Shown here piece after piece: positions 561 to 34,139 of a DNA stretch of 55,407 nt. Made by a program: the position numbers and the translations under genes. Each line of letters opens with the position of its first letter. Position 1 is the stretch's first letter. The stretch is from Catajapyx aquilonaris (lineage: Eukaryota). Below the pieces are notes generated by a model, which saw nothing but the letters and a program-made list of their open reading frames with translations, searched no databases and was not told the origin of the DNA. The stretch lies in contig KZ537962.1 of NCBI GenBank assembly GCA_000934665.2, positions 186,001-241,407 on the forward strand, written 5' to 3'.

Positions 561-2185
561 AGACAATACCGAAGTGCCCATAGAACTTTACACTGGAGAC
601 GCCCGAGTACTGAGGTCTAGCCGGTTCAATTCGACCAATCCGACCAAAATAATAATCCATGGATTTGCAGATAACGGAAGGACAGAACCCTGGCTTCTGG
701 AGCTCAAAGATGGTAAGTTTTTTTTTTCTTTTGTCAAGGTTGTGTGACAATGTCACCTATTCTGATGGCACTGAGGCGTCACGCTCTTTTGTACCACTGA
801 TGTAAACCAGCTTTTGATGAATTCAAGGTTGGAAACCTTGACGGCCTTTTCGTGTCGACAAGGTCTCTTCGGGTGTCTCTTATACGGCTAGTTAATGGGC
901 GGGGAAGTAACAAGAATGACTGTGTAATGTATTGCATAATTGCTTTTTTGTGGTGGATCCTGCACAGAACTTCTTACCTACGGTCCATGCAATCTAATCT
1001 CGGTGGACTGGACTGCCTTGGCCATGGTGCCCCTCTACCACACCGCTGCGGCCAACACTGAACTGGTTGCCAATGAGCTGTCCTTCTTCCTGGACTTCCT
1101 CTCTGCTCAAAGAGCTGTTACCTTGCCAGATCTTCATGTGATAGGGTTCAGCTTAGGGTCTCATGTGGCAGGGATAGCTGGAAAGAGAGTGAGAAGTGGG
1201 AAGCTGGGTCGCATAACTGGTATGAGATATGCATCACTTTACCTAATCCGTATGTCAAAAAGTCAGTGATGTAGCAGGTCATAAGTCGATCCAACTGCCC
1301 TTTACCTCATCCACAGCATTAGATCCAGCACATCCTGCTTTCCGGTTTCTAGACAACCAGTTTAAACTTCACAAAAGTGATGCTCTGTTTGTGGATGTCA
1401 TCCATACCACTGCATCAAAAAATTTGATCAAAGGAGTTGGGATGCTTGAGCCACTGGGACATGTTGACTTCTATCCAAATGGAGGAACCATTCCTCAGCC
1501 GGGATGTGAATCTCCAACCCTGTCCCTTTCTGATCACATACAAAGTAGGTGCCACAAGAGTACAGTAAGTATTTATTCTTGGCCCTTGTCGATCAGGAGA
1601 TAGGGAGAGATTGTCTGGGAAATTATGATGCTGTGCTTGGATACTGAAATTCCAGTTGCAGACACCAACGGCATGCCATTGACCATGACTTGATAAGTTT
1701 CTGCATATGTGTCTTGTTACTCATATTAAAAAGTAATGTGGCATTTGGCCATCAGTATTGCAAGACAAGCAGCATCCACAATAAGTGATACCAATAATAT
1801 TTACCAACAGCAGTATTAATCACTGTTCTTGTGTGCAGCTATCATATGTAGTCATCGGAGAGCCATTCATCTCATCACGGATTCAGTTAATTCTCAAGTG
1901 CCAATCCTTGGCTGTCATTGCCAGGATCTAAATTTAGTTCTAGCGAAGTCATGTCGCTGTGGGAGAAGCAATGACCTGGTGCCCTTGGGTGTGCATACAC
2001 CTACCAGGTAAGAATTTGGCAGTCCACTTGTAAAGCTAACACCAATATGGCCTTGGCTCCATTAGTCATATACAACTCAGAAAACCTGTAATACACAGCC
2101 CTAATGGTCCATCTCTTGCAGTGCACGTGGTCAAGTGTACCTCATAACAAATGCAGTGCCTCCATTTGGAAGTTCTGCAAGCTGA
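561..2185 (+). CDS. Pancreatic lipase / phospholipase A1 family protein (5' partial). Exons 561-712, 968-1219, 1317-1544, 1839-2007, 2122-2185
   Basis: The spliced frame gives PTKIIIHGF, NLISVDW, HVIGFSLGSH (GxSxG nucleophile), RITALDPA (Asp), DALFVDVIHT, GHVDFYPNGG, CSHRRA (His) and RGQVYLIT. All junctions are GT-AG with compatible phases. TGA at 2183-2185. The first coding exon(s) were not identified. Confidence 0.9.
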
Positions 2186-4662
2186 CTGAATGGTGTTACA
2201 TAGCAGCAGGAAAGAAAAATAAATGACACTTGCATTTTTTTTGTGTGAGTTCTAATTGCCACATATACTTCCCAATACAGTTTCAGAATTAGGGCTACTC
2301 TTGCATTTGGGAAGAGGGGGGTGAGTCTATACCCACAACACATATACAATGTATGAAAATTACAAAAACATTTAACTAATAATTTCAATGGGTAAGTCAA
2401 TGTTAACATCTGCTCATGATAACTTATACCACCCGATGCACAAACCACAGCACCGACTACAGTAGAATTACAGTGAAACCTTCATCGAAGGGAATCTTCC
2501 AGTCACAGTCCTCAAAAGCCTGTGCTACACACACACTGTTCACCATATAATTTTAAGCGAGGTGTACGCTTAACTATTACAAAGGTATACTACCAAGCAG
2601 AAAAACTATATCAGCATAAAACAATATATAAAACTTTAAACAGCAACATTGTTTCATAAAATTACAGCACATATATCCCAACATAAAATGTGAGGTATAT
2701 TTAAGGACAATTATTTTCTCTATGTACCAAGAAAGACTTCATCAGCATAAAAGTCTGCGAACACCCCTTTTGCACCATTCAGTGACGAACAAGGAACATA
2801 ATTTTCCCCAGGAATGTTTGTACAATGTACTACCACATTTAGGAGTAACATGCTTTAAAATTTTCATCTTGTCCTCCAAGATGATGAGTGATATTGCAAG
2901 TCATTCCCTAGTTGTTACAAATCCTAGATGCCTTTAAAAATTTTTACACTGAAGCATTGCACAAAAAATAATAATTCAGCAGCACGTGCTTGAACTCTCA
3001 AACTCTGTGCTTTGCAATGTTGACAACAAAACATAATCATCGCAAAGAGACCTTCAAGAAAATAATTTGTACTTTTCCCATTCATTAAATATTATGCAAT
3101 ATATCATACCAAGAGTGACCCCAAAGTAAAACACAATATTCTTGCATCAAAATTGATTCATTATTGGAAATCAGCAATGACAAAAATCCCCTATTGTGAT
3201 CACACATAAATAGTGTTAGAAAGAGTGAAGGACTAGTGGTACAAACGAGGTTGGGTTTTCCGCGTCTGAATAATAACTCAGGCTACCTCAGGATATACTA
3301 TATACACATATTATGCAACATAGGCTACATCAAATAATTCATGTGAAAAAATGCTACAAGCAATCCAGTGATAAAAAAACCCAGTTACACTACCATAAAT
3401 GTATCCATGCTCTCTGATGAAGAGTATTATTTTTAAAGCAGTTATGGTGCAAGGTTTAGGACTCACTAATTATTTGGATTACTTACAGCAGACAGCATTT
3501 CAAAAGGGGTTCACAATTCCTCTAGGGTCACTCTTAACAGCAACAATTTTTAGCTGTACCACAATGTGATCCATGGAAAATTCCTCACAGCATATTAGAA
3601 AATAATTAATAATGGCATTATCCACATTATGAATAAGTGCATATTGTTATTGTGTAATAATTTGAGAGTTGTGTTAATCAGGATTAATGTATTCACAAAG
3701 CTCTTTTTGTAAGCAAGACTGACTTGATTAGCAATTAAAATTACCATGTATATGACATGAGGAATAATTCTCTGGACCACCTAGTAAAAAGAAATAAATG
3801 CAATTTATAAAGCTTTGCAAATATTATTTCACATGTGCACTAGATGGAGTAGCATATGCAACTACTATTATGCTTTATAACTTGTAGGGTACCACTTCCT
3901 AACAGCATTCTCACGTGAATCTAACTATTGCACAACTTGTCAATTATAACATTTATTATGCAAATTATTGATTAGATAAGATATCCAAGAAAGTAAAATA
4001 AAACGGAACATACAGTCAATGTGAACAATTACACTGGCAATAGAATACACACTTGGTATGTTCTTCCTCTGTTACAGTCTATACTTGACATTGAACTACT
4101 TCCAGCTTCATTATTGTGGTGTAACCATTTAATTAAATTAATTCTGAGAAGCAATGTAATTTAATAATTTTTCAGTCAAGTGAATCAAATTCCAATTTCA
4201 ATGTAATTTCCTTCAATCTTTTTGTGTTCAGCTACCAGTTTCACATATTGCAAGTTTTAAAATCCATCCTGCATAGTTAGGGCCAACCAAACTCATAAGT
4301 TCAGTGAAATCCTGTCACTATAGACATACAAAGTATAAATAAACCTATGCAATATTTATCAGTCAACGTCATGTTATAATTTTGCATACTAATTATTAAT
4401 TATCATAATAATTTGATTAACTTAAACTAAATATTATAATAAACTGGGGCTTGAATATAACCTATGCATATATATTCTTCAGCAAGCATGCTGCAATTAA
4501 AACCTCTGTTTACAGTCTTGGTCTGCACTGTTATGTTTTCCTTGCTGTAACAAGGCAAAGTTCCTAAAAAAACTAGAGTAAGAGTGGTACCAAAATCTGT
4601 CTGAAACTGTATCACACATTTGGCCTCAATCTCTCTCTTTCAAAAATTATTTTTTCCACTTT

Positions 4663-7600
4663 TCATTTGGCATTCACATTATTCTCTGATTTATCCTTCA
4701 CCTCAGCCTCTTCTTTGCTCTCCACCTCACCCTCTACCTTGTTCTCCACTTGATCTGGTGCCTTCGTCTCCACCACATTCTCTGTGTTGCTTTCCACCTT
4801 GTCCTCTACAATGTTATCCACTTTATCCTCCATGCTGCTTTCCACGTTCTCATCTGCCTTACTGTCCTCCTTGTGCACCTCCTCTTGACTGTTACTACTA
4901 GTGGCACATATTTTAAAGAAGTTCCTGAGTGGCTTCAGCACATGAGCAACCACTGGAACACTCCAGGCTTTTCCCAGCAGTTTCTGCCGCTTTCCTGGTG
5001 GGATGTTGCCCACTTCTGTGTAGTGTTTGGGCAGTCCAATTGATTCTTCCAGTTCTGTAACCTTCATACTGTCCCCATCCCCAGTGAGGATAGCTTGTTG
5101 GCTCGCTGGCATCAAGTTGTTCAAAGGACTTGTTGCCCTCTCAGGAACTAGCTTTGGCAAGTTCAGTGCTGCCTCTATGCTGACTCGTCTGGAGAGCAGG
5201 TGAGGCTGCAGAGGAGTGTGCAGTCCAGGAATGTTACCCCAAAAGTAACGGACACGCTGCTGCGGGGAGAAGAACCGTGCATCCAACACAGCTGGTTCAC
5301 AGCCAAGGAAGCTGAAGGTTGAAGTAAATGAATTAAAATAAGTGTCCCCTCTCTTATGAACATTTCCAAAATGTTTCATCAATTATTATTTCAACTCCGC
5401 ACACCACCAATTGATCTTACCGATTGATGACTTTCTTGTATTCAAGTGGCATGGAAGCCACATTCTCATAAAGCCAGAATAAATGACGGCCCTGGTTCCC
5501 AATCTGAGCTGCCTTTAGTACCCTGTAGAAGTCAAAGAAGAGCTTCCCAGTTCCTTGTTGATCATAAATTCCCCTTCTAGCTGGATTGACGAGTGACAGG
5601 TCATTGCAGGGGGATCCCCCTAGAACTAGGTCCAAGGGACAGAGCTTTTGCACCTGCACCTCTAACAATTCTTCGATGTCTCCCAGCTGTTGCACCCTTT
5701 GGTGGTGGTGAGAAGTGGACACAGCAATGGCATCTGGATCCACTTCACATGAGAAGTATGCTTCTACCTCCAGGCCAAGTTTCTCCAGGACATGTAGGGT
5801 GGTGCTTATGCCATCAAACAGTGACAAAACACGCATAGGCCTCTTCTCCTCGAAGGCCAGAGCGTTGGGAATCAGGAGTTGGTTCTTTGGGTTAAATAGC
5901 TGCAGAACCTGGCAATAAATAAAGCTCATGTGGTAAATCATGTTTTGGAATAAACTGTTGCAGAACAAAAGAAAAATTACTTACATTCTTTTGCCATCCA
6001 TTTCTACGGCAAATGTAACATGATGAATTATTCTCATCAGTCGTGACACACAAGTAACAAGTCCATGGATCAGCTTCTCTCACTCTCTCCAGCTCTTCAG
6101 TTCCACCCAATCCTTCCACACAGTCAATGCAATACACACTGAAATTTTTGATTGTTATGGACTCATGCGAGTTATTACTTGACCTCTCCTTACACATCTA
6201 TATACAGGGTGTTACTCTACCATTCAAAATCCTCCGAGTGGGGAAATGCGGCAGACTGATGGATTTGTCACTCCTGGCAAGGTCAATGAAGTCCATTCAA
6301 AAGGCTGTCCCAAGTTGCAATAAATTTATGTTGCTGTATAGTTGCCTTCAACTTTTTTGTTAATTATTCCATGCCTTCATTGACACATACACATGGAGAT
6401 TTTTTTTTTCATGCTAGTTACACAAAACAATTTATAAAACTAATTATGTTGCTATCAAATCATATGCAACCACACTAACAGGCAACTGGATGTGACAAGT
6501 GAATGGAAAAGTGGGAGGTTTCAACTCATCCTTCCATTCTGTGGAATTTTATTTTTAAATAGTTTAACACAAAAAGTACCGGTACTCACTTTCCATATGC
6601 ATGTGTTGCAAACAAACAAAAAAAAATGTGAAAATAGGTAATGTAAGTGCTATAAAGATTAAAACTCAGACTCGGGGCACCCATTTGAATGTGAACTCTC
6701 TTGACATTGCCAGGAATGTCTCATCCATCACTCTGCCATGTTTCCACATTTGGGAAATCAACTTTGGCAGGGTACTTTGTACATAAACATGTTAAAAATT
6801 GACAAAAAATTATGCTTGTGCCAACTATACCTATCGCAATCTTCATGATCACATATGAGAAGCTCTCCAGCACAGCTACATATAACACAGTAGGCCTGGA
6901 AGCAATTCAAGGGTATTATTTTCAACAGTATAACATAATGTAAACCTTGTGATTCTTATCACCTTGGCTCCATCATCATCATATGCGTACAGGGTCTCTA
7001 TGAGACCATCTTGGCACTTCCCACATACACCACCTACAAACAGTGGGTGAGGACCTACTACCTCAGCAGAAGTAGTGGTGCAAGCAATGCAGATTTCATC
7101 AATTTTTAGGGTACCCTCTCTGACTTTGGACATAGCATCACCTTAAAAGGTAATTTAAGTATTCATTATTTGCAGAAACACTCATGCACAAGAATTACCT
7201 TTTGTACTGACACTCTCCACTGGCACCTCCAATTGTACAGGGTCCTCCACTGAAGGAAGTGCTTCATGTTGGTATCCATAGTAAAAGAGGTTCTTTCGTT
7301 TGATTTTACGAAGATGCCCAACAACAATTTCCGGCACTGGATTATCTGCAATGAATATTGTGCTTTAAAAGTGAGCCACCAGGGGAAGATGGTTCTTAGG
7401 GGTTATAGCAGGACAGACACTGGTGCATGATAAATATCAAATTCTTCTGTGGCACATATAAATCTGTGAACATGTCAGACCTGATGCAATCTGTCATTGG
7501 TGAAATTTTGTGCAAATGTAGAAGCATGACTTACTTTAACCAACCTCTGAATTACTTGGATGCCACTGGATGGATTTAATTGGCCTGCAGCACTATCTTA

Positions 7601-8519
7601 CATCTTATACCATACCATTTTTAAAGCTTCCAAAAGCAGGGTTTTTGTCACAGGTATTGGTATAAATGGAGACACAAGCAGTAAAGAAACTAATCTAGCA
7701 GAAACCACCATGTCCACCCACTTCAGCCATTGTTACACCTCAGACTGTACAATGGCATGCACACCTCTTCCAGCTATCAAATCATTAAAAAATACTAATC
7801 AAAATTAGTAAAATCAAAGGTTACAGTGAGCTTATGGACATTTGATGCTAGATATTGATGCTGAGAGCATGCAACATTAAAACATTAGGGGTTGAAGCAG
7901 GTGACTCTTAAGCATAACTTCAAGGTTTCAATATAATTAATTTTGCAATATGCTTATGAGTTTATACTACAAATGAGATAAATTACATTGTATTGCATTG
8001 AGTAGAACTGCTGTATAAAGTGATCCGTAGGCGAGCACGCTAACCAATACACTATGCCACTCATTGCCCAACTGCTGTATAAAGTGCTACATTATCAAGG
8101 TAATCCTACTTTCATATGTATATGAAATTTCTTAACAAATTTACATAATGAAATCTGACTGTTCTGGAACCATGCAATTACAGACAGATTTCGTGGCATT
8201 AAAACAGCACGCACTCTACCTGGATTTGGTTGAAACCGTTGTGCATCAAAAGGTCCCTTCTCTGAAAGAAATCCCTGTGATGCCCATGAGAGAAGTTCAG
8301 CATAGTTTCCTCCAGCTCTTTCAGGATCCGCCCGATTGGCACATTCCTATAAAATAAATCACCCTGGTGTTATCCTCTCCCTATGATAAATACAGTGTAC
8401 ACTTTCTCTAATAAACTTCTCCAGTGCACCTTATCCCCTCCCTATTTCAGCAAGGTTAAAGAAGAAAAAGGCACAACAAAGGTCTATTGGAAATATACAC
8501 CACATCATCATCATCATCA

Positions 8520-8554
<35 letters not shown>

Positions 8555-11500
8555 AAGAAATGAAAATTCATTTCCCTTGAGTTTTGTTACAACGAGCATA
8601 CACTTCTATAATTGCTTACCCTAAGAGCTTCCTTGAGGGCAAGTTTGAAAGTTTTGAAGCTGCACTTTGAGTATTTCCTCTTGAAGTGGCTTGTAAATCC
8701 TACAAGTTTGTCACACTCCACCTAAAATAACATTTCATAAACACACAATGACAATGTGAACAAAGCCTGGTGTTTACCTCTGATATTTTGTGATCCCCAA
8801 ACCAGAAAACCCAGGTGTGCTTTAGCTTTGGTGGATCCATGCCACAGTCATCAGCTGTTACTATCATACCTGGCCACCACCTCATCGTGCCCAACTTTCC
8901 CCACACCAAGGAACCTATAAACCGGCAGTGCCTATCAGCGATAGACAAAGATGGTGGCAGGTCAATTTCTGCCTGCTCAATTCTACTCTTGCTGTCACCA
9001 GGCTGCTCATGATAATTGCACTCAGATTGTGCAATCCGGACCTTTAAGCGTTTGCTTGATTTCTTTGATGACTTTTTGGAGAATCCAATCTGTAGGATAA
9101 CACAGAAAATATCACTGGATCCTAGATATAGTACCAGTACTATTCAATAAAACTCTTTAAAAAGTTGAATTCAAGGCAATGTCAACAGTTTTAAAAGCAA
9201 TTGATAAATTCATATAAATACCTTTTTAGAATCTTTCTTTTTGTGTGACTTCTCCTTGTGCTTTTTCTTTCCCTCCTCTGATGCTGGTAACGGTGATAAT
9301 GAAGATGAAGACTTCTTCTTATTCTTCCTGCCTTTGTCAGACTTTTTCTTTAGCTTCTTACTGTCAGGGCCAGATGAATGGCTGCTCTTCTTCCTCTTCT
9401 TGACTGCTGAATGTCCAGACTCCTTTGATGAACATGTGAAAACCATCTGAGCTGATTCCTGGTCACTGGGTTTTGCAGATTTGTCACTGGGTGTGTTAGT
9501 AGGGCATGGAAGGCACTCTGTTGCATTATTATTGTTTGGCAGAGCAGCAGCATCCTGCTCTTTACACACTTTTTCCCCATTGCTGCCAATCTGATCCCCT
9601 TCTTTGGACTTCACAGGGTCAATGGGCCCTGGTACCAAACAATCCTTGTCAACAACATGAACCTTCATGATAGGAATCTTCAATTCCTTCAGGATGTGAC
9701 CTGGCACCTGCTCCGCCTTCCCGTTGCGTTCAACAGTCTTTGTGGCAGGTTTTTGTTTGGACTTCTTTTTCTCCTTGGATGCTTTTGAATATTTCTTCTT
9801 TTTTGGCTTTCTAATACGCCCCACTTCACTTTCCAAGATGCTTTGCAGCATGAAAGACTGGAATTAATATCAGTTGATTAATATACTGTCTGATAACTAA
9901 ATGCATATGACATATAGGTATTTCTGCCCTTTGGCATGGTAATTTACTGTGTAAAAGAACAGGAATATGAATCAGATGCTTCAGAACACAGAAATAGTAA
10001 AATGTGACACCAATAGCACACTCTACCAAAGCCTGCAAAGTTTTGTACCATGTACTTTACTGCTGGGTCATTCCATCTCAACTCAGATGAAGTTGATGCT
10101 AGACCACCTTGGATTTTGTCTAACCATCATGTCAACATCAACCTCTCTTTCCCATGCAGTGCACACCATCACTCTGGTACGCAGTGTAGTACAGTCTACT
10201 CAACATCAGAGTGATATTACGGATTGACATAAGTGCATAAGAAACCAATCCTCAATGGGGTCCTAGCCTAAATTTGGCAAACCCATGTAAAAAAAATAGC
10301 CCTCATGTTAAAATGAATTTTGGTGTTTTTTGTTTGAAGAAATATGTTATAGTTTTCCAGTTCTACCAAAGATCATATTAATATTACGAGGGGTGTTATA
10401 TAAGTTCGTGGTTTCGCCTAGAAGGAGAAGCAAATGCGGAAGCTAAACAGCGCCATTAAATCGAGCCACCCTTCAAACCCCTATATCCACCCATTTGACA
10501 TAGGTGTCAAAGTCCTTGGGTTCAGAAATAATTCGGATGTGAAAGGGTGCGCAGCATCTTGTGAAGATGGCGAACATCGCACATCGCGCGGTCATCCAGT
10601 ACCTGGTGGCAAAGGGAATGGGTGCCAAGGACATCTTTGAGGACATGAAGGATACATTGGCTGGCGATGCACCATCCTACAGCATGATCCAGAAGTGGAC
10701 TGCCCTCTTCAAACACGGCCGAGACAGCCTAAAAGACGACCCCCGCTCCGGAAGACCCCTGTGTTCCACCACTGAAGAAAATGTGGCCAAAGTGGAGGAA
10801 CTAGTGATGGGAGACCGAAGACTGACTATCAGGTACCTTGCTGAGGTGGTGGGCATCTCAACATTTTCCATCCACACCATACTACCTGACCACCTGCGCC
10901 TGTGGAAGGTGTCAGCATGATGGGTACCCCGAATGTTGTCGCCAGAACAGAAGGTGGCACGTCGGGATATGTCACAATCAAATTAGGACCTGCTGAATGC
11001 TGATGCAGAAGGATTTTACACTCGTCTGGTCACACAGGATGAAACCTGGGTACCTCATTGTGTTCCCGAACAAAAAGAAACACCTGCGGGGTCGACTCCA
11101 TGGGAGTGACGAAGAGGTCAAGGCAGCTGCGGAGGACGTCTTGGGGGGGGGTGGGATTCTTCCTTCTACCGGAGAGGTTTGGAGAAGTTGCCACGAAGAT
11201 GGACAAAGTGTATTGACCGGTGTGGGGACTATGTTGAGAAATAAAATTGTTTCTTTGTCATGTCTCGCGTATGTCTACTTGAAACCACGAACTTATATAA
11301 CACTCCTCGTATACTGTATATCCTGCCCCCTGACGTCACTGTCCCCAAACAGATCGGTGCCAGGCAGGAACACACCCTGGCTGGTTTGTTCCTTTGTTGG
11401 TTTGCTTTGTTAGTGACCCTCCCAAAGGAATCGAACGACCACCAGTAAAGCAGGTGCACCAGTCTGCTGACGTCACTGTGGTCAGGCAGGAATGGGAATG

Positions 11501-14500
11501 CGCCCTTTATGAATTTCCCCCTACCAATTTGAGAGAACACCATCACAAACTATCCTTATTGTGAATGCAAACGTCCAGACCATATTAGAAGTAAATTCCA
11601 GATAAATCCCCTATACGGAAATTACCTGCGAATTTATGGAACAGTATGTCAAGCTGAATAATGTTAGGTCATTAATGCTCTGTTATGCTAACACACTGGA
11701 CACTCTTGTGAACATCTATAAATGATGCATCAATAGATTTATGAACTGTCCAAATTCATTCAACTCTACATGACAGTGAAGCTAAAATCATCAGAATCAC
11801 AGACAGTCAGGTTCCAACTTCGTTTGTGTTGAGATGGAATGACACTCCTATTGTTTTATACAAACTCACTAAATTCATAATCTGAAACATATGAGCCCTC
11901 ACTTCTTCTTGACATAGAATTCAGCAAATTTGAGTATGACAGTTTAAGTAATTGTGCATTAACAGGGTGATGGTAACAATAGCACACAAAAAAATAACCT
12001 TTGTCGAGGTAAAAATTTCGTTATTGAATATTTATCAGAAAGTACAAAAAAAAGGGCACTTCGTTTTTTTTTGGCGCCTTCGGTAATAGTAACAGCACCA
12101 AGTGGTACAGACCTGCAAGTGATCCACTTGTGAAGGTCGAGGCCTGAGACTGTCCTCCCATCCATTACTGCCACGTCCATTCCCTCCCTTTTTGGGGACT
12201 TCCGTCTCTTCTTTTGCATCACTAACTTCCTTTTCCATTGAATTTTTGTCTGTCACATCCACTGCCTCTTTGAGGGACTTGGCGGATGACTTTTTGGCTA
12301 TATGCCTCCGTTTAGGCACAGCAATTGACAGACGAGGGGGACGATGTGTTAGACTGGGATCCTTCTCTTCCTTGTTCTCCTCAGTTGTGTTTTCAGGCAG
12401 ATCAGGTTCGTGTTTTTCTATGGGTGTCAATATTGGTGGCTCTGGGCTGTTGCCCCTCACTGATTCCCAGTGCCGCTTCTTTGGGTGGCTCTTAGGGCGA
12501 GGTTGACCACTGATTTTCTCCTAAATTTTACAAAGAATGTTTCATGGTTATTGTTTAAAAATCTGGTAGTCCAATAACCACTTTCATTCAAACATTTGCA
12601 GAGGCAATGACATAAGGAGAAACATCAAAATACTGTGACTACATGTACTATGTGTACGTCTACTTGGCTGGACCCCATGCAACTCCAACATTATCACTGC
12701 CTGTCTGTGGCACATGTCCCATAATAATATCAGGCACAATATGACAGACAAAAACAATAATACACAAACTACATGAAAGAGCAGGTATACCTGGAATCCA
12801 TATTTACACAACCTCTGAGCCAAAAAGATTGAGAGATGGTAGACTAAGTGTAGGCTACGAATTTGGGCGTAAATACGCATTTTACAAACAGAACATTCAA
12901 GTCGTGCAAAAAAGGGGTAATAAAAGTTTTTGTCAAGGATTGCATGCATTCTATAAGAAGATTTTAGCAACACACCTTAGCAGGCTGTTCTTCTTCCTTA
13001 GGAGGATCATCTGGCAAGACAACTTCCTTTTCATTTCCATTGGTCTGATTAGCACCCATATTCACAGCCTCTATCCTGCTGCTAGCATCTGAAATAGAGC
13101 AATATGTCAACTTCATAATCACTAAGCACAACAGTTCTGAAAACACAGCACAACTCATTTAAATATCATTGGGCCCTTTAGCTTTAGCACAGTGGTTCCC
13201 AACCTGGGGGGGCGTGAGAGGATTTCAGGGGGGGNGGGGGGGGGGCGTGAGGCCATGAGAAATACGTAAAATAATGTAACATGTTTCCGCTTGGCGCTGC
13301 TGGAAATGTGAAAGGACCGACTTTTCTCCTTGCTTGTATCCGATGTGCTTACAGTGTAGGAAGATTCCACTGTACTTTGTCAGCTACATTCACCTAAACT
13401 TGTGTGACCTTGAACCCCCAAAAAATGTACGTAGGTACAGACACCTGGTGGGAAATTTTGTTTTCAGCACTGCGAGTAATGTTTGTAATTTCCGTATTTT
13501 TTGTAGAAAGTAAGTTCCGTTTTTTTCATTAGGAAAACCACAATGCATCCCCAAAAATTTTATTAACACATCTGAAATCGACAACTGTCTATTTTTTTTT
13601 CAAAATCGTTTCCAGCGACATTGTGGCATTTTTCATTGAGTTACACAATATTTTGTATGCCTATGTCATAGAAGGCTGCCGCCAGCCATTTTCGCTATCC
13701 CTGAACGCTGGATTTCAACCGTCATTGTCAACCTTCTGCTTTGCCAGCCATTTCTCCCTGTACAGGTGTACAGGTTTCTCCCTGACAGGTGGTAATCGCT
13801 AGACTCTAAATCCCAGGTGATCAAAAAATTCTCACTTGAATTGTTGCCGCAGGGTTCCAGTAAGCAAGACAGTACGCAGGGGGGCATTGTCGCACAAGAA
13901 AACACCCCAAAACTCAATATACTGATACATTTCTTGTGAATTGCCATCCTTAACTTCTGTGAATGGTAAAATCAGTCACAGAAATCTGCAGTTCAGAGTA
14001 CCTACTAATGAAGATCAGTGCTTCAGGCCTAGAACTGTAATGAGTTTCCAAGCTTCAATTACATTAAGAATGACATATTAATTTTGATTGTTACCATCTA
14101 TGATCAAGGATTGAAGATATTTAATTCCCCTAAAGTGGTTTACAAAAAGATGAATCGATATAATATTTAATATATTATTAGGAACTGAAATTGTTGCGAC
14201 TTTTGAAGTCACCTGTTAAAAATTAGAAAGTATAATGCAAAATACCGAGAGTTAGGTCCAAAAAATTGTTAACTGAAAGTGACAACACTACATATTCCAT
14301 CTATAATGTTGAATATGCCTGATGATACATTAGTCTACTTGTGGGCTTGTACGGGCAGGTAATGGTTGTGAGGCAGAGAAATGAATGTGTTAGTTATCAT
14401 GTTGGATCTGTTGGAGTGGTGAACTGGATGTCATGAGCGACAAACTCCAATAATAATTTTTATGGACAACCAGGCTGGCATGCTTTACATAATAAGCTTC

Positions 14501-14612
14501 TCAAGGTTCAACACTGCCAAAGCCTTATATGGAACAGGCTGCACAGTTCCAATTGAAAAAGCATGTAGCATGGACATCACCTGACAAACTTACTCTCTGA
14601 TGTCTCCTCCAT
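4663..14612 (-). CDS. DNMT3: DNA (cytosine-5)-methyltransferase 3, about 1132 aa. Exons 14612-14594, 13088-12976, 12520-12113, 9857-9222, 9089-8778, 8721-8620, 8346-8220, 7345-7199, 7141-6963, 6895-6831, 6138-5985, 5908-5421, 5311-4663
   Basis: PWWP domain (LVWGKLGTMRWWPG...VFWFGDHK), ADD zinc finger (CIAC...HPLFVGGVCGKC...YCVIC...WTCYLC) and MTase motifs I LSLFDGI, IV GGSPCNDLS, VI ENV, VIII RVRYFWGN, X LLGKAWSVPV. The 13 GT-AG exons sum to 3399 nt in one frame. The ATG at 14612 is preceded by an in-frame stop. The N-terminal exons are less certain than the domain exons. Confidence 0.95.
8023..8069 (-). mobile_element. Tailless 5' fragment of a tRNA-like/SINE RNA with a 17-bp TSD, in a DNMT3 intron
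   Basis: The direct repeat AACTGCTGTATAAAGTG at 8006-8022 and 8070-8086 flanks 47 nt. Their reverse complement (GGGCAATGAGTGGCATAGTGTATTGGTTAGCGTGCTCGCCTACGGAT) resembles the A-box/D-arm head of the SINE at 52727. Confidence 0.7.
8503..8551. repeat. Compound (CAT)n-(TAT)n microsatellite
   Basis: Directly visible. Confidence 0.95.
10387..11309 (+). mobile_element. Mariner (Tc1/mariner) transposon, internally deleted and non-autonomous, in a DNMT3 intron
   Basis: About 29-bp TIRs CGAGGGGTGTTATATAAGTTCGTGGTTTC / GAAACCACGAACTTATATAACACTCCTCG, with TA on both sides. Transposase remnant: HTH region (RAVIQYL...DDPRSGRP), VSA*WVPRML, LVTQDETWV, then a deletion and a frameshifted C-terminus (KKHLRG...SDEEVKAA). 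Confidence 0.95.
13190..13260. mobile_element. Possible hAT-type MITE terminus (fragment)
   Basis: CAGTGGTTCCCAACCTGGGG is a typical hAT terminus. No partner end was found. Confidence 0.4.
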
Positions 14613-23390: not shown

Positions 23391-26302
<2,912 letters not shown>

Positions 26303-27580
26303 CTCCGGCAATCTCAACCAGCCCGCCACCGCAAAAATCCGGATGTGGAAGTCACAAGGGTATGGTTATTCCGACGAAATTTTCCTCGGAACCGGGAGTT
26401 TTTCAACCCGCGTGATTGAAGGGCTCCTGGCTTAACCCGACTCAATCGAGCGAATTAGGCGCTAGATTGAGACAATTCCAACTAATCTAGCCTAAACGGA
26501 TTGATCCTCCCAACTTTGTAAAGAGAGGTGAGCGCATGATCAAACTTTATATAGCGGCCACCCACGAATTTGGGGAGGCCGCCGCAGCATCCAGGGAAGC
26601 CACGGCAGAGGTGGCCGAACCATGGCCAATCATGGCCAGTCTTGCCCACCAATCGGGGACTTTCCTACTAACCAATCCTGACGCGAGGAATGAACACGTG
26701 CTTGTGACAATGCCGCCCCTTCAAAATATAGAGGGAGGCATAGGGGGGGCAGCACACCCTGTATACACTTGCCATCGTAATTATTGCAGCCACTATTGTT
26801 GCTTACAAAATGTGGGAGGGTGAGAGGATCATCCGTGTGGGGGTTATAATCGGGCCAAATTAACGCTTTGTGCAACTTGGATTGATCACTTTTGGTTCAT
26901 TCAAAAGTTCATTGGTTAAATGCAGCATCCCTGGCACCTACTCTTAAGTGGCAGGAGGGTGATTGATGGGATCCTACTTTCTATGAAACTAAATAATGTG
27001 GACAAGTGGGGTTTTTTTCCGTAACGCTCCGACACCGTGAGAATCATTTTTTCTCGTAAAGGAGTTTCGTATTGGGACGAACAGGGCTGATACGTATTTT
27101 GCCAATCATTTACAAATTAATAGGAGTATGCTGCAAACGTTGATGGGTCTTAGATCAAGTCATAAAATGAGCAAAAATTGATAATTAGTTAATTTCTTAA
27201 CTTTCACTGGTATAGTATACAATCCTGAAACCCTTTATCTCCATATGTTGCTTCAGTTCAGCTACATACGCAAATGTGCAATGAAAACCCAACGACATTA
27301 AAATTAATATCATTGCTGCACGTATTTGTATTAGACCCCCCCCCCCNCCCGTGGTGGACTTGGCTGTTTCTGATCTGAGACGCCTCAATTTATAAGCACA
27401 AATAGCCCTCAATTATTTTAGTGCATGTGATTAGGGATGTCATTCTGGAAGTGATGTATTCTATTCCCAGTATCAGCTCATCTAGCAATCTGTGTATTGC
27501 GGTTTTCCTCCACAAGTATCGATGGTGCAGTTATTCATCAACAATTTACACTCGATTTGTTTGCCCCCGAGAAGCCCCCG

Positions 27581-32449: not shown

Positions 32450-33955
32450 TTACATCTTCAGATTTCCAAAGCAGAGGTATTTAACATAGGTATATTCATC
32501 AATACCATGCCTGGAGCCCTCCCTCCCTATCCCAGACTCTTTCATACCTCCAAATGCTCCCTCCGCTGCAGATATCATGCCCTCGTTGATTCCTACCATC
32601 CCCACCTCCAATTTCTTGGCCACCCGCCACACTTGGGCAACATCATTACTGTAGAAATATCCTGCTAATCCTCTATTAGTATCATTTGCCATAGCCAACG
32701 CCTCCTCCTCTGTTGAAAACTCATTGCAGACAGCCACAGGACCAAATATTTCCTCCTGGTAGCAATTCATCTTTGGAGTGATGCCAGTCAACAGGGTAGG
32801 CTCGTAGAATGTTTCTTTCACAGGTTTGCCTCCGAGAAGCACTTTGGCACCTTTTGAGACTGCATCTTGGACCAATTCCTGCACCCGCTTGGCTTGCGTT
32901 TGATTAATTAGTGGCCCTTGGTTTGCCTTTGTGTCAAAGCCATCACCAAGGACAAGTTGTGCTTCCATGGCCTCTTGAAATGCCTGCACAAATTGCTGAA
33001 ACACACCTCGCTGGACGAATATGCGGTTGATACTGACGCACGTCTGCCCACTGTTGCGGAACTTGGCCTTCATGGCGCCATCAACTGCCAGAGCAATGTC
33101 AGCAGTGTCAAACACAATGAAAGGGGCATTCCCACCCAACTCAAGAGAAAGGCGTTTCACCCCTGAGCTGCAAAGCTTGTACAGAATTTTTCCAACATTG
33201 GTTGATCCAGTGAAAGAAACAGCTGCAACTTGTGGACTCTCACACAGATGTTGCCCTATTCTGGGCGAATTTAGTCTGGAACCAGTCACAACATTGAAGA
33301 CACCTGGTGGAATCCCAGCTTGCTCTGCCAGTGCTGCCAATGCCAGAGCCGACAGAGGTGTGTCCTCTGCAGGTTTGACCACGCAGGTGCAACCAGCAGC
33401 CATTGCAGCTGCTGCCTTGCGTGTAATCATTGCATTTGGAAAATTCCATGGTGTGATCATTGCCGCTACTCCAACCGGTCTCCGAATAAATATCATTTCC
33501 TTCGATGAAGATGGACTGGGCACAACCTCACCATACACCCGTCGTGCCTCCTCTGCAAACCACTCGACGTAACTGGCGCCGTAAGCAATCTCACCCTTGG
33601 CCTCAGCTATCGGTTTCCCCTGTTCCATTGTCAGCAGGTCAGCCAGCTCTCCCTGATGCTTCACCATCAAGTCATACCACTTCCGCAGCATGACCGCTCT
33701 CTCCCTGGCCGTGGTGTGTTGCCAGGACTGGAAGGCTTTGTGAGCTGCAGCCACAGCCTTCTCTGTGTCTCCCTCATCCATGTCTGGCACGGAGGCCACG
33801 ACATCCCCCTTGGATGGGTTATGCACCTGGAGAGTCTTTCCGGAGGAGGCCCCAACCCACTTCCCGTCCACGTACCCTTTTTCTCGAAGCAGGGCGTTGG
33901 TATAGTGGCGAACCAGGGGCCAACGAGCACACAGCTGACGTCGAGAGGCCCACAT
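32450..33955 (-). CDS. ALDH5A1: Succinate-semialdehyde dehydrogenase, mitochondrial (CDS without introns, 501 aa)
   Basis: One uninterrupted ORF with motifs EQGKP, ITPWNFP, KPAEDTP, SFTGST, LELGGNAP (Glu), FRNSGQTCV (Cys), EEIFGP and GREGSRHGIDEY. The first ATG at 33955 gives an Arg-rich presequence MWASRRQLCARWPLVRHY. The ORF-track start at 33985 is a GTG. Confidence 0.95.
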   Translation of the reverse strand: MWASRRQLCARWPLVRHYTNALLREKGYVDGKWVGASSGKTLQVHNPSKGDVVASVPDMDEGDTEKAVAAAHKAFQSWQHTTARERAVMLRKWYDLMVKHQGELADLLTMEQGKPIAEAKGEIAYGASYVEWFAEEARRVYGEVVPSPSSSKEMIFIRRPVGVAAMITPWNFPNAMITRKAAAAMAAGCTCVVKPAEDTPLSALALAALAEQAGIPPGVFNVVTGSRLNSPRIGQHLCESPQVAAVSFTGSTNVGKILYKLCSSGVKRLSLELGGNAPFIVFDTADIALAVDGAMKAKFRNSGQTCVSINRIFVQRGVFQQFVQAFQEAMEAQLVLGDGFDTKANQGPLINQTQAKRVQELVQDAVSKGAKVLLGGKPVKETFYEPTLLTGITPKMNCYQEEIFGPVAVCNEFSTEEEALAMANDTNRGLAGYFYSNDVAQVWRVAKKLEVGMVGINEGMISAAEGAFGGMKESGIGREGSRHGIDEYTYVKYLCFGNLKM

Positions 33956-34139
33956 GATGTAACTCGTCTCTGCAAAGGTCGGCACTTAACTGAATCGGCG
34001 GCTGGCGACTACCCTCGATTAGGCTTCGTTGGTCGTGTTGGAAGGCAGCAGGGGCAAAGGTGAGTCCGGGGGCTATCGTCCAGGGGCACCGTTGGCAGGG
34101 CAACGCAGGGGCAGGAATCGAAAAATTCAAGGATCTTCA

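Follow-up and report, generated by a model that had tools for sequence, protein, structure and literature searches.

From mammalian mutants, CpG read-out by the TRD loop and RD dimerisation are deemed obligatory for the activity of animal DNMT3 enzymes. A DNMT3 gene of the arthropod Catajapyx aquilonaris, contained in the stretch of 55,407 nucleotides analysed here (the window), raises the question of what such a protein can still do when its TRD has decayed and its chemistry has not. As a natural spliced gene with all catalytic residues minus the TRD, it offers a test of DNMT3 function through chromatin anchoring alone. It also bears on whether CpG preference can relax in an animal and on the order of the steps by which DNMT3L-like pseudoenzymes arise, since the same genome contains this intermediate alongside five or more fully dead paralogues. 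If inactive, it would be a modest further case of arthropod DNMT3 decay.

Gene structure and catalytic core

The gene lies on the minus strand (4663..14612) and comprises 13 coding exons encoding about 1,130 aa, in an open gene model whose start codon is provisional; of the internal splice sites, the one near 7200 and the one near 7340 have in-frame alternatives. The protein has the PWWP-ADD-MTase order (Pfam PF00855, PF17980 and PF00145) and its PDB matches are DNMT3A/B/C. The PWWP domain (8620..8930, minus strand; exons 8778-9089 and 8620-8721) was identified by Pfam (PF00855, E 8.6e-10) and tblastn, and the ADD domain (5985..7141, minus strand; exons 6963-7141, 6831-6895 and 5985-6138; PF17980, E 1.7e-16) retains the acidic DDD loop. 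The MTase N-terminal exon (5421..5908, minus strand; PF00145) is family-typical overall, with z=-0.3 against 127 homologues, and is separated by a phase 2 GT-AG intron of 109 nt (5312..5420, minus strand) from the last exon (5311-4663, minus strand). The latter encodes, in order, RVRYFWGNIPG, LPKLVPERATSPLNNLMPASQQ, TELEES, HYTEVGNIPPGKRQK and GKAWSVP, followed by an acidic C-terminal tail of low complexity (about 75 aa) and the stop codon (4663..4890, minus strand). This repetitive tail was not seen in the nearest relatives; speculatively, it may bind histones or mimic DNA.

Seven of the 12 introns were supported by CT..AC joints in one public sequencing run (X1), including the intron preceding the last exon (joint 5311/5421). 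The library type of this run is not on record, it possibly shares its source material with the assembly, and its contigs drop rare isoforms. One X1 contig (4053-5237), which covers the acidic tail, showed a single difference from the window, at 4509, within the 3′ UTR. The interval 5237-5262 was not bridged by any one of the X1 pieces listed, and no joint inside the last exon was listed among the X1 contigs. These joints and this contig show that the TRD segment is part of the spliced sequence as assembled. Downstream of the gene, X1 contigs covered 2240-2638, 2764-4006 and 4053 onwards, which, the contigs being strandless, suggests that the 3′ UTR extends over as much as 2.4 kb (window 2240-4660), as far as a convergent lipase gene (580-2180, plus strand). 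The intron 9858-12112 holds a mariner-like transposase remnant (window 10300-11500) whose match to the Mos1 HTH was below the cut-off and of which X1 contains diverged copies.

Residues are given in human numbering, obtained by alignment to platypus DNMT3A (P0079) with an offset of +3 that was checked on 18 landmark residues. The numbering of C710, T834-N838, W860, H873, D876, R882 and R885 is also found in passages of published texts. All 12 residues for catalysis and base flipping are present (C710, N711, S714, V716, N717, P718, R720, E756, N757, R790, R792 and W893). They are spread over motif IV PCN and the catalytic loop (5570..5611, with S714, V716, N717, P718 and R720; catalytic Cys codon 5608-5606), motif VI ENV (5459..5467), motif VIII RVRYFWGN (5233..5256, with R790 and R792) and motif X GKAWSVP (4954..4974, with W893), all on the minus strand. 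In the SAM-binding motifs I-III, F640, D641, G642, T645, E664 and D686 are kept; the last Gly of motif I (FDGISTT, 5798..5818, minus strand), G646, is changed to Thr, a residue found there in 0/127 homologues (Gly in 120/127). The FF-interface residues F732 and F772 are also kept. The earlier note had described PCN, ENV, RxRYFWGN and SLVNPAR as intact, and all four indeed are, although PCN, SLVNPAR and ENV lie in exon 5908-5421, outside the interval 4960..5230 that it quoted. A DNMT3L-like pseudoenzyme is recognised by the loss of the catalytic Cys, ENV and RxR, all present here, and the DNMT3L-like role proposed in the earlier note is, in a pure form, a poor fit to a protein with 12/12 catalytic residues in a genome where separate dead paralogues hold that niche.

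Decay of the TRD

In order to evaluate how unusual the last exon is, 341 proteins were collected in three similarity searches; one of these used the N-terminal exon alone, so that its ranking is independent of the TRD. Selection by similarity biases this set against strongly diverged proteins. Both TRD anchors were found in 239/341 proteins, only 8 of which were without the strict core pattern; by eye, 7 of these 8 retain a recognisable loop and 1 is a 186-aa fragment. Among the 102/341 proteins without anchors, 45 lack the strict core although PC, EN and motif X are present; 41 of these are vertebrate exon-skipped forms and 4 have a recognisable loop. Two other retrieved proteins (P0315 and P0265) have a decayed TRD with both flanks present, and both have lost the catalytic Cys. 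For scoring, 217 complete intact DNMT3 domains were reduced to 127 below 90% identity.

The TRD (human-equivalent 801-861; 5059..5223, minus strand) is 9 aa shorter than in the nearest relatives, the P799-W860 stretch measuring 56 aa, compared with 62 aa in vertebrate DNMT3A and 65 aa in the closest arthropod relatives, in line with the shortening reported in the earlier note. Of the 17 conserved TRD columns (799-862), 7 are kept, the lowest count of 128 (median 15 and minimum 8 in the 127 homologues), as against 58/63 before and 18/21 after the TRD. Along the domain, z against the 127 homologues is -0.3 for 634-770, +0.3 for the catalytic loop, -3.3 for 799-828, -5.0 for 829-848 (lowest of 128), -3.6 for 849-862, -1.8 for 863-890 and -0.3 for 891-908; for the TRD core it is -6.1, again lowest of 128. 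The decay of the TRD is thus a confirmed observation, beyond chance, and the claim of a remodelled TRD next to an intact core is borne out (TRD lowest of 128, N-terminal half z=-0.3). The TRD indels preserve the reading frame.

What is left of the core reads TSPLNNL (5113..5133, minus strand), that is T834, T835S, R836P, S837L, N838, S839N and L840. This remnant pattern (T834, Ser835, N838, L840) occurred in 877/200,000 shuffles of the segment, a post hoc count that is only suggestive. The reported loss of basic residues holds: Lys+Arg in 822-848 number 1 by alignment and 2 by eye, against a median of 7 and a minimum of 3 in the homologues (n=127). The Pro at the R836 position is without precedent (0/127); Arg itself is present there in only 37/127 (Lys 39, Asn 33), so a lack of Arg is in itself common. 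In all, G646T, R836P, S839N, V850A, W860K, F868I and D876E are absent from all 127 homologues, the TRD-internal positions being alignment-dependent.

The damage extends past this one loop, as the alignment indicates that the 849-860 hairpin and RD-interface residues are altered too. W860K (5062..5064, minus strand), in the RD homodimer interface, replaces a Trp present in 119/127 homologues by a Lys found in 0/127. Motif IX (5014..5040, minus strand) has F868I, F870L and D876E (Ile in 0, Leu in 8 and Glu in 0 of 127) and keeps H873. Within the RD homodimer interface, W860K and D876E are unique among the 127, and H873, N879 and R885 are kept. The RD-dimer changes W860K and D876E, F868I and G646T, each 0/127, go beyond what the earlier note had listed. 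The RD loop PPGKR (4987..5001, minus strand) carries Pro at both 881 and 882, each Pro occurring in 17/127 homologues, and keeps R885 (127/127); its Lys+Arg count of 4 equals the homologue median. R882P was accordingly rejected as a special trait, Arg being present at 882 in only 31/127 homologues, and this part of the argument in the earlier note is not supported.

AlphaFold2 was run on the last exon alone, half the domain, with 100 homologues as alignment. The mean pLDDT was 73.5; residues 56-76 fell below 50 and formed no secondary structure, whereas the same segment of the canonical P0003, modelled with the other 99 homologues, reached 92.4 with TRD strands at pLDDT 95-98; part of this contrast is mismatch to the alignment, which low confidence can reflect. 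A fold search with the half-domain model gave only DNMT3 chains among the matches listed (TM ~0.5), and an Atlas search led to C5-methylase clusters; neither was informative.

Three readings of the segment were rejected. A compensating frameshift is not supported by the other two frames across the TRD, which carry stops and no canonical motif. A hidden intron or an alternative last exon was dismissed on the lack of an X1 joint in the exon and of a canonical exon in the assembly. The short length is not unique in itself, being shared by 3/240 sequences including the window; the other two, from Popillia and Agrilus, retain a recognisable loop.

The closest canonical comparison is with the arthropod set formed by Strigamia (P0122), Limulus (P0005), Tachypleus (P0004), a scorpion cluster (P0003) and Ixodes (P0008). 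Like these proteins, the gene has the PWWP-ADD-MTase order and all catalytic motifs, and its N-terminal half is 63% identical to near arthropod relatives (71% among relatives). Unlike them, it has a TRD loop only 21% identical (64% among relatives) and 9 aa shorter, W860K, D876E, F868I, G646T and the acidic tail. The alignment suggested in the earlier note thus found related arthropod DNMT3s without this divergence. No second species with the same TRD loop was found among the proteins from the three similarity searches; the best last-exon identity to any retrieved protein was 55%, leaving no close orthologue for dN/dS. The gene groups with Strigamia in a 32-row quick tree (SH-aLRT 97), a grouping left open in a 61-row tree. 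Its end branch is 0.79-0.85, against 0.05-0.13 for the nearest rows, and end branches of equal or greater length, up to 1.47, occur in several DNMT3s of insects and crustaceans.

DNMT3 paralogues and CpG pattern in the genome

Searches of the whole assembly (20,583 contigs, possibly incomplete) found no second catalytically intact DNMT3 and no canonical TRD exon; the earlier note had advised looking for a second canonical paralogue. With a canonical 87-aa query running from the TRD to motif X, the sole match at E<0.3 was this last exon, and the second match (E 0.32) was not a DNMT3. The ADD matches, 6/6, belong to the DNMT3 gene or to a dead family. This family comprises at least five catalytically dead paralogues with open frames, on contigs C1653, C315, C3203, C3567 and C766; an extra ADD exon of this family, on C5676, may belong to the C3203 copy as its 5′ part. 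In all five, Tyr takes the place of the catalytic Cys and the catalytic loop, TRD and motif X are missing; they keep 2/12 catalytic and flipping residues. Motif I is intact in the 4 whose exon was recovered, PWWP was seen in 2 and ADD in 4, and His or Lys occupies the FF-interface position equivalent to F732. Pairwise dN/dS was 0.17-0.32 in 10/10 pairs (Nei-Gojobori; dS >0.85, near saturation, in five), which indicates that the five paralogues are under purifying selection. The stem of the dead clade is long in the trees (2.0-2.3), and no PDB relative of a dead-paralogue exon was found.

Exon 5421-5908 of the DNMT3 gene is without two phase-1 introns that are present in the dead paralogues, at the G646 codon and just past the catalytic loop. 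Both positions are presumably ancestral and common to human DNMT3A. The G646 codon, the site of one of these introns, is the codon changed to Thr in the DNMT3 gene.

Two DNMT1-like loci (C3513 and C1163) both have PC and ENV motifs, and the C1163 gene looks more diverged by eye. A DNMT2-like locus is also present, and the set of SRA-domain genes is expanded (C4013, C1282, C1347, C1708, C5784, C10019 and C1807), with five of UHRF1 type and two of another type, some of which may be alleles. CpG o/e was bimodal over 120 2-kb windows of contig C9 (45 below 0.5 and 22 above 0.8), and CpA/TpG was elevated where CpG was low (r=-0.79). CpG-poor and CpG-rich blocks had CpC o/e of 1.11 and 1.08 and CpT of 1.01 and 0.89, so that this weak test found no footprint of non-CpG methylation, as CpC/CpT depletion, in the CpG-poor blocks of this contig. 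This CpG pattern makes germline CpG methylation likely, for which DNMT1 could suffice on its own.

Candidate functions of the gene

Among the titles and abstract openings listed by searches of openly available full texts, none described an invertebrate DNMT3 that combines intact catalytic motifs with a decayed TRD. In mammals, PWWP and ADD are established readers of histone marks (H3K36me and H3K4me0 respectively).

The explanation we favour, tentatively and at somewhat less than even confidence, is that the chemistry would still be selected while DNA grip and dimerisation are weakened, giving low activity with a loosened CpG preference. PWWP (H3K36me) and ADD (H3K4me0) would hold the protein on chromatin, and a cytosine would be flipped by the catalytic loop together with the RD loop, which is still basic. 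The remnant T834, Ser835 and N838 would allow weak guanine read-out only, and RD-type dimerisation would be weakened. The outcome would be a low de novo activity whose CpG preference is loosened and probably not abolished, with bulk CpG methylation maintained by the DNMT1 and UHRF1-like genes. Continued selection on the chemistry is suggested by the 12/12 residues kept, against 2/12 in the dead paralogues, and by the loss of Cys in the two outside proteins with a decayed TRD; at the TRD retention rate (7/17), the probability of keeping all 12 would be ~2e-5, a rough value that assumes equal decay. The TRD has lost its charge, the hairpin and W860, which suggests weak DNA binding and a weak RD dimer. 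The ADD autoinhibitory brake would perhaps be altered too, since TRD residues lie near the ADD autoinhibitory contact (excerpt of bioRxiv 2025.09.24.678339).

Data on human DNMT3A bear on specificity. The CpG guanine is contacted by T834 and N838 in the DNMT3A-CGA structure, where T835 contacts the phosphate (PMC7210271, in part). In the R836A mutant, relative methylation rises more than 40-fold at CpC and 3-4-fold at CpA/CpT, and considerable CpG specificity, attributed to N838, is retained (PMC9530848, in part). With T834 and N838 kept and T835 replaced by Ser, outright non-CpG specificity is not the default reading, so that of the relaxed or non-CpG specificity raised in the earlier note a loosened preference is the part we favour. 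In excerpts of bioRxiv 2025.09.24.678339, the mutants W860A, H873R/A, D876A and N879A have a disrupted RD interface, and no silencing is added by D876A; both DNMT3 interfaces are required in mammals (PMC11006857, in part). R836A, W860A and D876A concern positions changed here and would predict more CpH activity and tetramer loss, but they are single engineered changes as opposed to more than 10 concurrent natural changes plus deletions. By this analogy, the loss of function seen upon RD disruption in mammals would count against the favoured reading, as may G646T by harming SAM binding; the inactivity of DNMT3B3, to which the vertebrate isoforms skipping this span correspond, and the lack of a non-CpG footprint in CpC/CpT, a weak test, also count against it. 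The idea that the dead paralogues might serve as partners is weakened by the His or Lys at their F732-equivalent.

A further, decidedly unlikely form of enzyme would have neither sequence read-out nor RD dimerisation and methylate cytosines in almost any context, with chromatin marks and perhaps an expanded set of dead DNMT3 and SRA readers as its guides, as an animal counterpart of plant non-CG DNMT3/DRM. Physcomitrella DNMT3 and plant DRM2 are DNMT3-family enzymes with non-CG activity (PMC7412668, in part), likened here by activity and not by TRD sequence.

The protein may instead be effectively inactive, an accessory chromatin reader kept for PWWP/ADD and the FF interface whose catalytic residues persist for folding, for SAM binding or by lag; we consider this unlikely, if a serious contender. 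Its model is human DNMT3B3, which has motifs I-VIII and X with the TRD span ~803-866 absent, as it is here predicted to be non-functional, and which is inactive; the 41 retrieved vertebrate isoforms skipping the same span correspond to it (PMC7846833). The decayed span is indeed the skipped one, the PDB isoform 3 matching only exon residues 91-133, and F732 and F772 are kept. RD mutants of human DNMT3A are inactive (bioRxiv 2025.09.24.678339, in part), and non-catalytic DNMT3s have been reported in Daphnia and aphids (passages of bioRxiv 2024.06.27.600920 and 2024.02.14.579807). Yet the span is decayed and not deleted, is constitutive, and keeps a T-S-x-x-N remnant; no intact isoform or paralogue was found here, nor an active DNMT3 partner in the assembly, which may be incomplete. 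DNMT3B3 motifs persist because their exons are shared with an active isoform, which is inapplicable to this gene, and the flexible catalytic loop, lost in the dead paralogues, is in line with the family average (z=+0.3). Daphnia magna DNMT3.1, aphid Dnmt3x and mammalian DNMT3L are likewise diverged DNMT3s with chromatin readers kept. According to parts of the respective texts, DNMT3.1 is without 5 catalytic motifs (bioRxiv 2024.06.27.600920; non-catalytic Daphnia paralogues also in PMC8016896) and Dnmt3x without residues thought necessary (bioRxiv 2024.02.14.579807), whereas the motifs are kept here. DNMT3L is inactive, and the counterparts of all three are the dead paralogues of this genome, not the DNMT3 gene.

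More doubtful still is a neofunctionalised enzyme, whose new loop would allow efficient methylation outside CpG or irrespective of context, or act on another substrate, like plant DNMT3-family enzymes. A normal core with a TRD change far beyond all 127 homologues, the in-frame indels, the gain of CpH activity upon R836 loss (excerpt of PMC9530848) and the fact that the dominant CHH methylase of moss is a DNMT3 (excerpt of PMC7412668) are consistent with it, but the loop has lost charge and predicted structure and gained no new motif, T834 and N838 are kept, CpH is not depleted in the weak test, and the same loop was not found in a second species among the retrieved proteins. We give little credence to relaxed selection, in a lineage on its way to losing DNMT3 with the TRD first to decay. 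The end branch far longer than in the nearest rows (0.79-0.85 against 0.05-0.13), unique changes outside the TRD (G646T, F868I and D876E) and the absence of DNMT3 from several arthropod orders (PMC8821070, in part) argue for it; against it, the decay is sharply local (58/63 and 18/21 flanking columns against 7/17), the ORF is intact across 13 exons and spliced, and other insect and crustacean branches are as long or longer (to 1.47). An artefact, be it an assembly error, a wrong exon or a canonical DNMT3 absent from the assembly with this gene as a minor paralogue, appears highly improbable. The assembly is fragmented, with no completeness given, the X1 contigs drop rare isoforms and no listed piece spans 5237-5262; against this stand the X1 contig 4053-5237 with its one 3′ UTR difference, the lack of a listed joint in the exon, the canonical 87-aa query and the 6/6 ADD matches.

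Elsewhere in the window, a homeobox gene (23391-26365, minus strand; PF00046) appears paired-like by eye, and an intronless succinate-semialdehyde dehydrogenase ORF (32450-33985, minus strand) has its best matches in mayfly, leafhopper and decapods at <=67%.
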